Positions 15,711-19,437 of a stretch of DNA of 64,000 nt are shown here, piece by piece (position 1 is the stretch's first letter; each line of letters opens with the position of its first letter). The position numbers and the translations under genes are program-made. Origin of the DNA: Escherichia coli (GTDB lineage: Bacteria > Pseudomonadota > Gammaproteobacteria > Enterobacterales > Enterobacteriaceae); NCBI RefSeq assembly GCF_029227855.1, contig NZ_CP074356.1. One strand, given 5' to 3'. The notes under the pieces are model-generated. The model worked only from the letters and a program-made list of their open reading frames with translations, was not told where the DNA came from and made no database searches.

Positions 15711-15814
15711 ACATTCCACCATGCATTACGATTAACGCCGCATAGCCAGTTGAACTTTGCTACTTTGTGAGAGGTAGTACCTTCTATCCAGTGCGAATTT
15801 AATTAATGGAATAA

Positions 15815-17818
15815 ATGATTATGAGTGAAAATGATACAATCCCAAAGAAGTCTACAAGTCAGATTAACAAAGCGGTATTCTTTACATCTGCTTTGCTAAT
15901 TTTCCTTCTTGTCGCCTTTGCCGCCGTATTCCCGGATGTCGCCGACAAAAATTTTAAACTACTTCAGCAACAAATCTTCACGAATGCCAGCTGGTTCTAC
16001 ATCCTTGCTGTGGCCCTGATTTTACTGAGTGTCACGTTCCTTGGACTCTCACGCTACGGTGATATCAAGCTGGGCCCGGACCATGCGCAGCCTGATTTCA
16101 GCTACCACTCCTGGTTTGCGATGCTTTTTTCGGCAGGGATGGGGATCGGCCTGATGTTCTTTGGCGTTGCCGAACCTGTAATGCATTATCTTTCGCCACC
16201 CGTTGGCACTCCAGAAACCGTTGCGGCAGCTAAGGAAGCAATGCGTCTGACCTTTTTCCACTGGGGACTGCACGCATGGGCAATTTATGCCATTGTGGCG
16301 CTGATTCTGGCGTTCTTCAGTTACCGTCACGGTCTGCCTTTAACTCTGCGCTCCGCACTCTATCCCATTATTGGCGATCGCATATACGGACCTGTAGGAC
16401 ATGCGGTTGATATTTTCGCTGTTATAGGCACGGTCTTTGGCGTTTCGACATCACTGGGTTACGGTGTTTTGCAGGTGAATGCCGGTTTGAACCATCTTTT
16501 CGGGGTGCCCATCAATGAAACGGTGCAGGTAATTCTGATCGTGGTCATCACGGGGTTAGCGACGATTTCAGTGGTGTCCGGTCTGGATAAGGGAATACGT
16601 ATCCTGTCTGAACTCAATCTGGGTCTGGCTTTGTTGCTCCTGGCGCTGGTCCTGTGTCTGGGACCAACCGTGCTTCTGCTGAAGTCATTTGTGGAAAATA
16701 CGGGCGGTTATCTTTCGGAACTGGTGAGTAAAACGTTCAACCTTTACGCGTATGAGCCCAAGTCGAGCAACTGGCTGGGGGGCTGGACATTACTGTACTG
16801 GGGATGGTGGCTTTCATGGTCGCCGTTTGTGGGGATGTTCATCGCACGGGTCTCCCGCGGGCGAACCATTCGCGAGTTTGTCACCGGCGTGCTGTTTGTT
16901 CCCGCGGGTTTTACGCTAATGTGGATGACGGTGTTTGGTAACAGCGCGATCTATCTCATTATGAACCAGGGGGCCACAGACCTCGCCAATACTGTTCAGC
17001 AGGATGTGGCGCTGGCCCTGTTTAATTTCCTGGAGCATTTCCCGTTCTCTTCTGTGCTGTCATTCATTGCAATGGCGATGGTCATCGTCTTCTTTGTAAC
17101 GTCTGCTGATTCGGGGGCAATGGTTGTGGATACTCTGGCATCAGGTGGAGTGGCAAACACACCCGTCTGGCAGCGAATATTCTGGGCCTCGCTCATGGGC
17201 ATTGTTGCAATTGCGCTTCTCCTTGCCGGAGGGCTAAGTGCGCTGCAAACGGTGACAATAGCGAGTGCATTGCCCTTCTCAGTGATCTTACTAATATCTA
17301 TATACGGACTTTTAAAAGCTTTGCGCCGGGATTTGACCAAGCGTGAAAGCCTGAGCATGGCGACAATTGCTCCTACGGCTGCACGTAACCCAATTCCTTG
17401 GCAGAGAAGGTTACGCAATATCGCGTATCTGCCGAAGCGATCTCTTGTGAAACGTTTTATGGACGACGTTATCCAGCCTGCCATGACGCTGGTTCAGGAG
17501 GAACTGAACAAGCAGGGGACGATAAGCCACATTAGTGATGCAGTCGACGATCGTATTCGTCTTGAAGTCGATTTGGGCAACGAGCTGAATTTTATATATG
17601 AAGTGAGGCTTCGCGGGTATATCTCACCGACCTTCGCGCTCGCCGCAATGGATAATGATGAGCAGCAGACTGAACAACATCGATATTATCGCGCTGAGGT
17701 TTATCTCAAAGAAGGCGGTCAAAATTATGATGTGATGGGCTGGAACCAGGAACAGCTGATTAATGACATACTGGACCAGTACGAAAAACACCTGCACTTC
17801 CTGCACCTGGTTCGTTAA
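15815..17818 (+). CDS. BCCT-family transporter, BetT-like (choline/betaine/carnitine-type osmolyte carrier)
   Basis: 667-aa polytopic protein with the BCCT tryptophan-rich signature ([32 protein letters not shown]) and a C-terminal cytoplasmic tail resembling BetT ([15 protein letters not shown]). Confidence 0.8.
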   Translation: [667 protein letters not shown]

Positions 17819-17865
17819 TAGCAACATGCCGTCCTGGGGGCGGCAATTATTATCCCGGCCGCAAT

Positions 17866-19158
17866 ATGAGGGAATGCAGAATGATTTCACGCTGGAAATG
17901 GATGCTGAAGCAGACAATTAAAAAACTATGGTTCAGGGCAACGTTATTCGCAATTGTCGCGATAATAACGGCCCTTTTATCAATTCTTTTTAAATCAATG
18001 ATACCTGAGTCGGTTTCCGTGAAGGTTGGTGCGGAAGCAGTCGATAACATTCTGAACATACTGGCATCGAGTATGCTGGCAGTGACCACATTTTCGCTGA
18101 GTATCATGGTCACAGCCTACGGTTCAGCCACTACTAATGTGACTCCCAGAGCTACGCGTTTAGTTGTTGAAGACGTCACCACACAAAATGTACTGGCCAC
18201 CTTCATCGGTTCTTTTCTCTTCAGTCTGGTAGGGATTATTGCCCTCAATATGGGAGCTTATGGAGAAAGGGGGAGAGTCATTTTATTCATTGTCACACTG
18301 GTTGTCATTGCCTTAATCCTCATCACATTGCTTCGCTGGATACAGCATTTGACCTCTCTGGGGAGGGTTGGTGAGACAACGGCACAAGTAGAACAGGCGG
18401 CCATCGAAACATTTATTGCGAGAGCAAGAAATCCCTGTCTCGGTGGATATCCATGGCTTGAGAACAATGAACAGCCGAAAGGAACGGTTGCAGTTTATCC
18501 GAAGAAGATTGGCTATGTTGAATATATTGATATGGTGAAACTTAGCAAGCTGCTGACCAATGATCCCCGTCATGTATACCTCGTGGCGCAGCCAGGCAGT
18601 TTCATACATCCGTCCATGCCAGTTTTGTACCTGAGTCAGGGCCAGGAGTCGTCAATCAACACCGATTTACTTGAGACGATTATTGTCTCGGATGCACGTT
18701 CATTTGCTCAGGATCCTCGATTTTGTCTTAGCGTCATGGCCGAAATAGCCTGCCGGGCCCTTTCCCCTGCAGTGAACGATCCTGGAACCGCCATTGATGT
18801 CATTGGCAGAGGTGTTCGTATACTTTCCACTTACGCGCAGAATAAATCTGATGAAATAGAAGTGAAATATCCTTCAGTACATGTTGCACCACTTCAGAAT
18901 AACGATCTACTGGAAGACTTTTTCTCACCTGTCGCGCGCGATGGTGCCAGTATGAGGGAGATTCAGATAAGAGTCCTTAAAGGACTGTCGATGCTGAGTA
19001 AAGGTTGGCCTGAGATATTTGCTGAAGCCGCACATACCCTGGCATTTGAAACATTAGAGCATGCAACTCGTGCTGACCATATAGATTCTGATAGATATCT
19101 AGTAAAATCAACTTATTATAATTTATTTAGTGGCGAATATTCTAATAAAAAAACATAG
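17866..19158 (+). CDS. DUF2254-family predicted membrane protein
   Basis: 430-aa ORF with N-terminal transmembrane helices, 47 bp downstream of the transporter (likely co-transcribed); family call from memory. Confidence 0.55.
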   Translation: MRECRMISRWKWMLKQTIKKLWFRATLFAIVAIITALLSILFKSMIPESVSVKVGAEAVDNILNILASSMLAVTTFSLSIMVTAYGSATTNVTPRATRLVVEDVTTQNVLATFIGSFLFSLVGIIALNMGAYGERGRVILFIVTLVVIALILITLLRWIQHLTSLGRVGETTAQVEQAAIETFIARARNPCLGGYPWLENNEQPKGTVAVYPKKIGYVEYIDMVKLSKLLTNDPRHVYLVAQPGSFIHPSMPVLYLSQGQESSINTDLLETIIVSDARSFAQDPRFCLSVMAEIACRALSPAVNDPGTAIDVIGRGVRILSTYAQNKSDEIEVKYPSVHVAPLQNNDLLEDFFSPVARDGASMREIQIRVLKGLSMLSKGWPEIFAEAAHTLAFETLEHATRADHIDSDRYLVKSTYYNLFSGEYSNKKT

Positions 19159-19437
19159 CTGCAGAGCAAGCAATTCGGTTGTTGGCAAGTCAAGGGCAAA
19201 GCATTCGCGTGAGAATGGGCGTATGCTTTGTGCCAAAAGCAAACGTTGCTAATTCTGCACTGTTCAGCGATGGCGCAGTAGAGACAGGCACTGCCACTGT
19301 CCAGTCGGCAAAAGCGAACACTTTGCCACTGCGGGGATAAACTGATTGAAGCTCTCGCGCAAAATCACTTATTCTTTTGCGTTAATAAAATGTAGGAGAT
19401 GGGTCATTGATCCTACCCACGTAATATGGACACAGGC

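Follow-up and report, generated by a model that had tools for sequence, protein, structure and literature searches.

A known mobile salt-tolerance module, betU and a DUF2254 gene, beside an independent acuR unit in an insertion-sequence-riddled Escherichia coli island

Introduction

The closest described system to the locus reported here is Tn6062 (Ins1056; IncHI1 PST6 plasmids pAKU_1 and pSTY7), in which betU (SPAP0106) and SPAP0105, both of them putative transporter genes, are enclosed by IS1 copies (Holt 2011). A cloned 3,405-bp fragment with both genes conferred growth of S. Typhi in 0.8 M NaCl (Holt 2011). In uropathogenic E. coli, BetU is an accessory importer whose gene is flanked by insertion sequences and occurs in roughly one in three strains. 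It has been stated to be betaine specific (Wood 2015). BetU shares the BCCT fold, the Trp-rich TM8 signature, the AGMGIG motif and a long cytoplasmic C-terminal domain with BetT and with BetP of Corynebacterium glutamicum. In contrast to betT, however, betU lies outside the betIBA-betT locus and is accessory in E. coli, and its reported substrates are betaines rather than choline. Functional complementation is said to have yielded betU as a lone transporter gene. A further system that bears on the DNA next to the module is AcuR-AcuI of Rhodobacter sphaeroides, where acuR and acuI are arranged in one operon.

Here we analyse such a locus in a stretch of 64,000 nucleotides of E. coli DNA (contig NZ_CP074356.1), hereafter the window. 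The locus, which lies in an IS-riddled E. coli island, holds a mobile salt-tolerance module of two genes that is known from enteric bacteria; both the pair and the phenotype it confers have been published before, as betU and as Tn6062. That BetU transports betaines and that the cloned pair confers salt tolerance is taken from this literature. A preliminary description had presented the pair as composite-transposon cargo with an inactivated repressor gene. The sequence features it described are all present with small corrections only, and several of its interpretations are revised below.

Results

The window matches the tRNA-Leu island of E. coli E24377A, with flanking annotated genes in matching order and the tRNA-Leu gene at 26230-26314. 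The interval under study, 3,697 bp, is 100% identical in E24377A and other E. coli chromosomes, and a chance assembly is therefore ruled out. The identity of the parts of this locus and the order of its IS events could both be established.

The first gene of the pair, betU (15821 to 17818, + strand), codes for a 665-aa betaine transporter of the BCCT family. An ATG at 15815 opens the longest ORF and would give 667 aa; the second ATG, at 15821, is the start used in orthologues and in RefSeq. The protein scored 540 bits on TIGR00842 (cutoff 408) and 749 bits on PRK09928, the NCBIfam BetT subfamily model (cutoff 695), and fell short of the 'glycine betaine uptake BCCT' equivalog cutoff (591 vs 650). 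It aligned end to end with the solved BCCT structure 8ybq (E = 1e-193), and further alignments were obtained with BetP (E about 1e-97) and with solved DddT chains (E = 2e-67). With TIGR00842 and PRK09928 scores above their cutoffs and this end-to-end alignment, the BCCT transporter with a BetT-like C-terminal tail noted earlier is genuine.

Primers used by Holt et al. (2011) map to the ends of the pair: the reverse primer matches 19129-19148 with one mismatch, and the best match of the forward primer, at 15746-15768, is approximate (5 edits) and leads to a 3,403-bp amplicon. On a Klebsiella plasmid, a gene with matching surroundings carries the annotation 'secondary glycine betaine transporter BetU'. 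Together with the description by Holt et al., the primer matches, the Klebsiella annotation and an accessory occurrence between insertion sequences make it almost certain that the gene is betU, which in E. coli encodes an accessory, betaine-specific importer of osmoprotectants. The BetU of uropathogenic strains is most likely the same gene, and the DUF2254 gene of the window is probably SPAP0105 of Tn6062. Tn6062-type alleles differ from the window by about 1.4-4% of nucleotides.

The second gene (17881 to 19158, + strand) encodes a DUF2254 membrane protein of 425 aa, as judged from Pfam, the family alignment and AlphaFold models. Its longest ORF spans 17866-19158 (430 aa). Homologues begin at MISRW, which corresponds to 17881 and is preceded by a GAGG ribosome-binding site; hence the gap to betU is 62 bp rather than 47 bp. 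The earlier lengths of 667 aa and 430 aa and the 47-bp gap hold for the longest ORFs and give way to 665 aa, 425 aa and 62 bp with the starts of the homologues. The pairing with a DUF2254 protein was confirmed by Pfam PF10011 (E = 5.8e-93). In the AlphaFold models, four long N-terminal helices, in which invariant Ser, Thr, Asn, Gln and Asp residues abound, are followed by a well-folded cytoplasmic alpha/beta-plus-helical domain. Fold searches returned no informative structural relative, so that any molecular activity would be a guess, and no enzyme-like match came from Pfam or the fold searches.

To place the family in its genomic context we sampled 72 DUF2254 loci from different species, many of them Pseudomonas or Rhizobiales. 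Ion and osmolyte transporters of eight families occupied 35 of 140 positions directly adjacent (±1) to DUF2254 genes, as against 5 of 296 positions at ±3 or further (odds ratio 19, Fisher p = 3e-14, with shared ancestry left uncorrected). The enriched families include NhaA, CPA1, ClC, TrkH, SulP, K+ channel and BCCT. This approximately 19-fold enrichment beside ion and osmolyte transporter genes suggests a role of DUF2254 in ion homeostasis. A BCCT gene adjoins DUF2254 in about 8 of 80 loci; since about 90% of the sampled DUF2254 genes have no BCCT neighbour, the partnership is not obligatory. The gene-neighbourhood check proposed in the preliminary description did find BCCT-DUF2254 synteny in other genomes, in both gene orders, among Enterobacterales as well as in Rhizobium and Agrobacterium. 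A Serratia betU that is 93% identical stands alone and has no DUF2254 neighbour.

Alignment of seven contexts showed that about 100 nt of native sequence 5' of betU are conserved in every one of them. In the window this upstream region (15711 to 15820, + strand) contains a conserved TTGCTA box and a TCTATCC box and overlaps with the beginning of the insert that Holt et al. cloned. A consensus sigma-70 scan of 15711-15820 found no + strand site, and the position of the betU promoter is a prediction. The outward promoter in IS600 that had been suggested is not needed, given that this native sequence is kept in every context. Just 3' of the betU stop codon a terminator-like scan matched a GC-rich stem-loop (17827 to 17845, + strand) with the look of a leaky terminator or of a hairpin that stabilises mRNA. 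Its stem is kept by compensatory changes in Enterobacter, Pluralibacter and LSJC7, and the LSJC7 version carries a T7 tail; the folding energy was no better than that of shuffled sequence (z = -0.29). RNA-seq of a Klebsiella plasmid gave 54 RPKM for BetU and 16 RPKM for the next gene on the same strand. The two genes are probably co-transcribed.

The pair was found in 1,972 of 5,426 complete E. coli genomes (36%, absent from the other 64%) and in 1,537 plasmid records, mostly of Klebsiella. It is mobile, as had been proposed, and its two genes travel together in at least five settings: an IncFII plasmid, an IS1/Tn6062-like plasmid, an Enterobacter prophage end, an E. coli lambdoid prophage, and the fec or leuX islands. 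Between the IS1-flanked copy and the window, identity is 98.6%. All mobile copies have a common left end, about 135 bp 5' of betU, and a common right flank, and the DUF2254 ORF is intact across thousands of them.

On the left the module is bordered by an IS600 copy of 1247 bp (14464 to 15710, + strand), delimited by 27-nt imperfect terminal inverted repeats and with an NCBIfam IS3-family transposase match of 400 bits. Aligned with the intact IS600 of ST131, it shows 98.6% identity with 2 gaps and is 18 nt shorter, and orfA and orfB therefore read as one 379-aa ORF (14528-15667). No target-site duplication surrounds it, the left flank being CAA and the right flank ACA. The reported distance of 104 bp between IS600 and the transporter gene applies to the ATG at 15815 and becomes 110 bp for the orthologue start at 15821. 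The IS600/betU junction is common to two further loci (L003 and L093). Tn6062 has an IS1 copy on either side of the pair, whereas here IS600 on the left trims about 25-30 bp more of the upstream sequence, and the right side is fused to acuR, with IS3 a later simple insertion.

This IS3 (1258 bp; 19408 to 20665, - strand; orfA 20301-20609, orfB 19438-20304) had its ends read directly, and RefSeq annotates it as IS3-like (IS3 family). It is enclosed by a 3-bp direct repeat, CAT, at 19405-19407 and 20666-20668. In ST131 and other strains the IS600-betU-DUF2254-TetR array exists without IS3, L003 and L093 bearing the uninterrupted allele. IS3 entered late, by simple insertion, and duplicated CAT at its target. 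Because IS600 and IS3 are different elements, because IS3 has its own perfect duplication and because arrays free of IS3 exist elsewhere, the locus is not a composite transposon, contrary to the original proposal.

Beyond IS3 lies the 5' fragment of acuR (20667 to 20885, + strand), a TetR-family acrylate-responsive regulator gene that scored 88.5 bits on NF051457 AcuR; an intact allele from other strains is an AcuR equivalog (266 bits, cutoff 247). As described previously, the ribosome-binding site (AGGAG, 19394-19398) is split by IS3 from the ATG at 20667, and removal of IS3 and one CAT copy in silico restored ...TAGGAGATGGGTCATGACAGGC... at the start of the gene. Similarity to intact alleles stops at 20870, leaving about 68 codons, and an IS100 (IS21-family) istB fragment adjoins the truncation (20936 to 21229, - strand; found as an ORF and annotated in RefSeq in an identical region). 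Hence acuR bears two inactivating lesions, IS3 at the start codon and a truncation after about codon 68. The gene is not divergent, as had been assumed, but co-directional with the module and downstream of it.

The region upstream of acuR, including the AGGAG site (19243 to 19407, + strand), is part of an acuR-acuI unit and not of the betU module: it resembles the acuR loci of Klebsiella grimontii from 19243 (89%) and of Raoultella from 19301 (95%). The 3' flank that moves along with the module (19159 to 19248, + strand), ending in a REP-like hairpin at about 19210-19250, is delimited by the extent of similarity in mobile copies, which ends at 19248 for the Klebsiella IncFII plasmid and at 19235 for the Enterobacter prophage copy. 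The two units thus meet at a sharp junction, 19243-19248. The conserved partner of acuR is the convergent acuI, encoding acrylyl-CoA reductase, and adjoining dehydrogenase fragments match AcuI. In Klebsiella (K. grimontii) and Raoultella the acuR-acuI pair occurs without betU or DUF2254; no dddL was seen near it in the contexts inspected. The likeness to the Rhodobacter pair lies in the intact allele scoring above the AcuR cutoff and in the AcuI-matching fragments; here, however, the genes are convergent and the window holds only the first 68 or so acuR codons. The regulator is absent from the module copies inspected (Klebsiella plasmid, IS1-flanked, prophage), and no related TetR gene was found near 80 other DUF2254 loci (0/80), although an intact regulator lies directly 3' of DUF2254 in 616 E. 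coli genomes. The acuR unit is independent of the betU module. Since acuR-acuI exists without betU and the junction is discrete, it is very unlikely that acuR is the repressor of the module.

Discussion

We consider it likely that the locus is a betU-DUF2254 osmoprotection module in which DUF2254 may serve ion homeostasis, with an unrelated acuR unit attached. BetU, a secondary BCCT transporter, takes up glycine betaine and proline betaine upon rising external osmolality, which allows rehydration without ion accumulation. By homology with BetP and BetT, its C-terminal domain of about 160 residues is likely the osmosensing or regulatory part. DUF2254, 62 bp away past the conserved hairpin, would probably be expressed at a lower level by read-through transcription. 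As an inner-membrane protein it may aid ion homeostasis under salt stress, whether by forming a channel or transporter or by sensing ionic conditions, rather than serve as an obligatory BetU subunit. On the left, IS600 meets the module at an old junction that also occurs in ST131, and the right side is fused to an acuR-acuI acrylate-detoxification unit that was later wrecked by IS3 and an IS100-associated truncation.

It might also be imagined, following the preliminary description, that the pair is cargo of IS600 and IS3 with the TetR protein as its repressor, IS3 having de-repressed the module or an outward promoter of IS600 driving it. TetR regulators often control neighbouring transporter genes, IS elements do lie on either side, the regulator gene is parted from its ribosome-binding site, and the 616 genomes with an intact regulator fit as well. 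Yet the two elements differ, a 3-bp duplication belongs to IS3 alone, otherwise identical arrays lack IS3, and no duplication flanks IS600. The lost-repressor part fails on the AcuR equivalog match with its convergent acuI, on the existence of that pair without betU in K. grimontii and Raoultella, on the regulator-free Klebsiella, IS1-flanked and prophage copies, on the sharp junction and on the 0/80 count at other DUF2254 loci, so that we regard this account as highly improbable. Still less credible is a remnant DMSP/acrylate cluster, with the transporter as DddT and DUF2254 acting on an imported sulfonium or betaine compound. DddT-type BCCT proteins import DMSP, BetU does align to DddT chains, and matches to the AcuR and AcuI equivalogs adjoin the pair; however, the discrete junction indicates secondary joining of units, acuR-acuI is conserved independently, similarity to BetT-type proteins and BetP is far above that to DddT, BetU is reported as betaine specific, and DUF2254 lacks an enzyme-like match.

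Two further explanations concern DUF2254 itself. That it is a dedicated accessory or regulatory subunit, tuning betaine transport in a physical complex with BetU, would agree with the tight same-strand linkage and joint movement in at least five contexts, with BCCT-DUF2254 adjacency in two gene orders across alpha- and gammaproteobacteria, and with the presence of both genes in the salt-tolerance clone. We nevertheless find it improbable: the Serratia betU does without DUF2254, BCCT genes are adjacent at only about 8 of 80 DUF2254 loci, and other members adjoin NhaA, ClC, CPA1, TrkH, SulP or K+ channel genes. Moreover, BetU is conserved at 91-93% where DUF2254 reaches only 68-73%, which makes tight co-evolution look unlikely, and betU was reportedly isolated as a single transporter gene. 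An unrelated passenger, captured once beside betU and carried since, would explain the common left end and right flank of mobile copies and the solitary betU of Serratia. It is rather unlikely in view of independent BCCT-DUF2254 pairs, in reverse order in Pantoea and Mixta and at about 49% and 48% identity in Rhizobium and Agrobacterium, of the strong enrichment of transporter genes beside DUF2254 generally, and of an ORF that stays intact in thousands of mobile copies.

In conclusion, the locus is an ordinary and already known one: a widely distributed and mobile salt-tolerance module of enteric bacteria. The exception is one small question, that of DUF2254, whose neighbourhoods suggest a role in ion homeostasis.

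The module and its assignment to betU

Every component named in the preliminary description is present in the ORFs and in the raw sequence: a 667-aa BCCT transporter and a 430-aa DUF2254 membrane protein, an IS3-family element on the left, IS3 on the right, and the 5' end of a TetR-family gene. The BCCT ORF occupies 15815-17818 on the plus strand, and the DUF2254 ORF (Pfam PF10011) lies on the same strand at 17866-19158. Judged by orthologue alignments and by the RefSeq annotation, the genes really begin at 15821, which gives a BCCT protein of 665 aa, and at 17881, with GAGG upstream, which gives a DUF2254 protein of 425 aa. 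The genes are adjacent as first described, but with the corrected starts the gap between them grows from 47 bp to 62 bp.

The Trp-rich TM8 signature and the Gly-rich AGMGIG stretch, both established as BCCT signatures from BetP and CaiT, can be read in the transporter sequence. The family model TIGR00842 scores 540.3 bits over residues 59-506 of the 667-aa ORF (curated cutoff 407.55), so that membership in the BCCT family (Pfam PF02028) stands. The solved 685-aa BCCT transporter 8ybq gives a whole-length alignment that includes the ∼160-residue C-terminal domain of the window protein (E = 1.1e-193), and the core of the protein also aligns with BetP. On PRK09928, the NCBIfam model of the BetT subfamily, the protein scores 749 bits (cutoff 695); as this is a subfamily model and not an equivalog, the score does not establish choline specificity. 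The neighbours of the gene in the window are IS600, DUF2254 and acuR, and not those of a betIBA-betT location. The gene is matched in 1,972 of 5,426 complete E. coli genomes (36%) and is absent from 64%, hence it is not the core betT gene.

BetU has been described as an accessory, betaine-specific BCCT transporter of E. coli (Wood 2015) that accepts glycine betaine and proline betaine and not choline (Holt 2011; Wood 2015); according to papers citing Ly et al. 2004, its first source was pyelonephritis isolates. On IncHI1 PST6 plasmids the gene is carried by Tn6062, an IS1 composite transposon with two putative transporter genes, SPAP0105 and betU (SPAP0106), and S. Typhi grows in 0.8 M NaCl with a cloned 3,405-bp fragment containing just these two Tn6062 genes (Holt 2011). 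The reverse primer of that study has a site at 19129-19148 in the window with one mismatch, and the best site of the forward primer, at 15746-15768, is only approximate with 5 edits; together the sites span 3,403 bp in the window versus the published 3,405 bp (Holt 2011). The E. coli plasmid L004 has a copy with an IS1 end on one side and an IS1 element on the other, and over the two genes this copy shares 98.6% identity with the window. The naming of the Tn6062 gene as betU (Holt 2011) and the primer sites make a strong but indirect case that the BCCT gene is betU. Like Tn6062, the window carries betU and a second membrane-protein gene as a ∼3.4-kb unit; in Tn6062, however, IS1 is found on both sides, whereas no IS1 adjoins the pair in the window. 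The betU module and Tn6062 are already known, and the locus adds nothing new to that picture.

Insertion sequences flanking the pair

The IS600 copy to the left of betU (14464-15710) has 27-nt imperfect terminal repeats and lacks a flanking duplication, with CAA on its left and ACA on its right. It is 18 nt shorter than the intact IS600 of ST131, so that orfA and orfB form one 379-aa ORF (14528-15667), which RefSeq annotates as protein WP_000088357.1. Since the 18-nt loss joins the two genes, this copy could produce a fused OrfAB transposase without programmed frameshifting. IS3 occupies 19408-20665 and measures 1258 bp, the canonical length of the element; its ends, of the TG...CA type, read TGATCCTACCCACG... 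and ...GCTGGGTAAGATCA, and it is bordered by a CAT target duplication (19405-19407 and 20666-20668). Excision of IS3 in silico gives back TAGGAGATGGGTCATGACAGGC. This reading and the CAT repeats confirm that the element now separates the TetR gene's ribosome-binding site from its ATG.

In all E. coli contexts examined, whether island or plasmid, betU has IS600, IS1 or IS3 beside it. The pair had been proposed to be cargo of an IS600/IS3 composite transposon. However, the elements on the two sides differ (IS600 left, IS3 right) instead of being the same IS twice, and in the window no single target duplication surrounds the whole unit: IS3 alone has its CAT duplication and the flanks of IS600 do not match. 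In addition, ST131 and like strains carry IS600-betU-DUF2254-TetR without IS3. Such IS3-free alleles show that the DNA on either side of IS3 was once contiguous, and together with the perfect duplication of its own they mark IS3 as a late simple insertion. The composite transposon therefore does not hold.

The TetR-family gene and the acuR-acuI unit

The TetR-family gene whose 5' end lies just beyond IS3 (20667-20885) had been considered the lost repressor of the module. Its intact ST131 allele (218 aa) scores 266.2 bits on NF051457, the AcuR equivalog model (cutoff 247); the window fragment scores 88.5 bits, a low value due to its truncation. Beyond acuR, convergent dehydrogenase fragments match the model of AcuI, an acrylyl-CoA reductase, with 251.6 and 201.1 bits. 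An acuR gene that is 92-94% identical is also present in Klebsiella grimontii and Raoultella planticola, where it is followed 60 bp on by an intact, convergent 327-aa ADH-family gene, and no BCCT or DUF2254 gene was found near these acuR loci. Similarity of the module to a Klebsiella plasmid copy stops at 19248 and similarity to the Klebsiella acuR locus starts at 19243. Two units have thus been joined secondarily in E. coli, at a REP-like hairpin, and acuR brought along ∼160 bp that had preceded it. A related TetR gene was found at none of 80 other DUF2254 loci. An AcuR equivalog that belongs to a separate acuR-acuI unit, a sharp junction and the lack of a related TetR gene at these 80 loci all speak against a repressor of the module. 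The knock-out of the gene is nevertheless real: acuR has been inactivated twice, by IS3 at the start codon and by truncation after about codon 68. What was disabled, however, is an acrylate-response unit and not the regulator of the module.

The REP-like hairpin (GCGTATGCTTTGTGCCAAAAGCAAACGTTGC) covers 19210-19250, exactly at the join of betU-DUF2254 and the acuR unit. On the IncFII plasmid L002 of Klebsiella, with hairpin sites at 7851-7886 and 11509-11537, a related copy of 36 nt is also present upstream of the module, so that the module is bracketed there by similar short palindromes. We also considered betU-DUF2254-acuR-acuI as one DMSP/acrylate cluster; this was rejected as the units meet at a discrete junction.

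Expression of betU and DUF2254

An IS-borne promoter had been suggested for the transporter gene. Scanning the plus strand of 15711-15820 for the sigma-70 consensus gave no site. Alignment shows that the stretch has been kept in all mobile contexts and, in part, in distant orthologues; most of it lies within the fragment giving salt tolerance (Holt 2011). Because the conserved upstream stretch has been retained and falls mostly within that fragment, a promoter in IS600 is possible but not required for betU. A TCTATCC box upstream of the gene is a possible sigma-S-like candidate.

A GC-rich hairpin (17827-17845) directly follows the stop codon of betU. Compensatory base changes maintain it in Enterobacter, Pluralibacter and strain LSJC7, and in LSJC7 it has a T7 tail; the window hairpin has a T-poor tail and a stability no better than that of shuffled sequence. 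In RNA-seq data for a Klebsiella plasmid, BetU is at 54 RPKM and the next same-strand gene, which by synteny should be DUF2254, at 16 RPKM. This difference fits partial termination and read-through. The Rfam search returned no RNA family in or around the pair.

The island and other mobile contexts

Several E. coli chromosomes match the 3,697-bp region 15711-19407 with 100% identity, among them that of E24377A, where the array is part of an island beside tRNA-Leu. The order in E24377A is a shf-type polysaccharide deacetylase gene, capU, virK and lpxM, IS600, BCCT, DUF2254 and IS3, followed by the TetR fragment, an IS100 fragment, IS629 with a group II intron, a degenerate integrase and tRNA-Leu. 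In the window the shf-type polysaccharide deacetylase gene, capU, virK and a second lpxM (msbB2-type) occupy 10471-14347, directly left of IS600; such a shf/capU/virK/msbB2-type set is typical of virulence plasmids of Shigella, EAEC and EHEC. The IS629-type element invaded by the group II intron spans 21404-24414 and contains an ALIL frameshift pseudoknot (21685-21801), the intron's ltrA (22801-24324) and an Rfam Intron_gpII match of the intron (24328-24414). The island boundary is marked by tRNA-Leu(CAA) on the minus strand (26230-26314); in E24377A, where the region is identical, the neighbour of this tRNA gene is a tyrosine integrase gene with a frameshift.

The pair is adjacent in about 1,500 plasmid records, 1,264 of them from Klebsiella, and in the one Klebsiella plasmid inspected it adjoins the IncFII replicon. 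It is also found at a prophage end in Enterobacter asburiae, after tail-fibre and invertase genes, within a Rac-like lambdoid prophage in E. coli Combat11I9, and next to the fec locus in ST131. Three mobile contexts share a left end ∼135 bp upstream of betU, from which the IS600 junction in the window takes off a further 25-30 bp; on the right, similarity between contexts stops 77-90 bp past the DUF2254 stop codon. In the mobile copies inspected, DUF2254 always accompanies betU. Searching a phage collection with the module gave no meaningful matches, and in PHROGs BetU and DUF2254 each match a family of their own, both annotated as of unknown function.

The DUF2254 protein and its genomic neighbourhoods

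The DUF2254 protein matches PF10011 with E = 5.8e-93 over model positions 3-366 of 368. Comparison of 31 homologues (49-90% identity to the window protein) gave 89 invariant columns. The long helices 2 and 3 contain many invariant Ser, Thr, Asn, Gln or Asp residues and the motifs ASSMLAVTTFSL, TPRAT and TTQNVLATF, and the soluble domain carries RSFxQDPRF, RALSPAxNDPGTAID and ARDG. AlphaFold predicts four long N-terminal helices (pLDDT 55-70) and, with high confidence, a C-terminal alpha/beta-plus-helical domain (pLDDT 91 when modelled alone). In a search of representative proteins the family comprises 8,939 clusters at 50% identity (E ≤ 1e-3). Nearly all of the best 150 matches are single-stretch proteins of ∼420 aa, and no domain fusion that hints at a function was seen among these 150. 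The few apparent fusions are near-identical E. coli sequences and were set aside as probable rearrangement or annotation artefacts. A profile search of PDB sequences with DUF2254 returned nothing, NCBIfam has no family for it, and PADLOC gave no defence-system match for either the BCCT or the DUF2254 protein.

Our synteny scan covered a single genome of each species and yielded 80 DUF2254 loci, and at ∼8 of them a BCCT gene is directly adjacent; the predicted synteny in other genomes was thus recovered. The gene order of the window recurs in Pluralibacter, LSJC7 and one MAG (BetU 91-95%, DUF2254 68-73% identity) and in Rhizobium and Agrobacterium (∼49% and ∼48%), and the order is reversed in Mixta and Pantoea (∼80% and ∼50%). 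In Serratia a 93% identical betU stands alone, in an apparently core chromosomal position by lysS-prfB-recJ. Protein identities were checked again by BLASTP. With BCCT adjacency in several groups and a solo betU in Serratia, the pairing is recurrent but not obligatory. BetU is conserved much more strongly across these genera (91-93%) than is DUF2254 (68-73%), and Serratia-like chromosomes may be the source of mobile betU.

Clustering of the neighbours of 72 DUF2254 loci revealed eight families that recur directly beside the gene: NhaA, a CPA1-type Na+/H+ antiporter, ClC, TrkH, SulP, a K+ channel-like protein, an MscS-like protein and BCCT. Of the 140 positions at ±1 they fill 35, as compared to 5 of 296 at a distance of ±3 or more (odds ratio 19, p = 3e-14, uncorrected for common descent), and at least one such neighbour occurs at 24 of the 72 loci, often one per side. 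In another case an MgtE gene adjoins DUF2254. The K+ channel-like protein has no NCBIfam match and owes its label to a selectivity-filter-like TTGFGD motif read in its sequence. In three loci of Agrobacterium and other Rhizobiales (L024, L039, L057) DUF2254 is immediately preceded, on its own strand, by a small K+ channel-like ORF that combines TTGFGD with a Cys-rich C-terminal tail, and in two of the three NhaA is found on the other side of DUF2254. In A. salinitolerans the K+ channel-like ORF just precedes the BCCT-DUF2254 pair and is encoded on the other strand.

Discussion

The best-supported reading of the locus is that it represents the known betU osmoprotection module. The preliminary observation was confirmed and its interpretation is partly supported; its regulatory and transposon model is not. 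In this reading BetU imports betaines under hyperosmotic stress and DUF2254 is a co-travelling inner-membrane protein, with a part in ion homeostasis under salt stress suggested by its gene neighbourhoods.

What does DUF2254 contribute to the pair? We favour, with low confidence, an independent ion-handling protein. That DUF2254 might be a dedicated subunit of BetU is less likely, as betU occurs alone in Serratia and DUF2254 genes have varied other neighbours. DUF2254 may also be a passenger beside betU. It is possible, although we consider it rather doubtful, that the family is an unrecognised, widespread inner-membrane class for ion homeostasis (channel, exchanger or ionic-strength sensor), that its fold lacks any solved relative, and that it has been recruited repeatedly. 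Equally tentative is the idea that this recruitment took place next to Na+/H+ antiporter, ClC, Trk, K+ channel, SulP and BCCT genes. We would be similarly hesitant to see in the betU module two halves of a salt response, DUF2254 as the ionic half and BetU as the compatible-solute half.

The salt-tolerance module rides on multidrug-resistance plasmids, such as IncHI1 PST6 in S. Typhi H58 and Klebsiella plasmids, and one E. coli genome in three has it as well. It probably helps its hosts to survive in urine, bile, food and the environment. The neighbourhood analysis provides a testable lead on the function of DUF2254, a large and conserved family for which it points to ion homeostasis. The function of DUF2254, once shown, would account for the spread of the pair instead of betU by itself and could define a new membrane-protein family.
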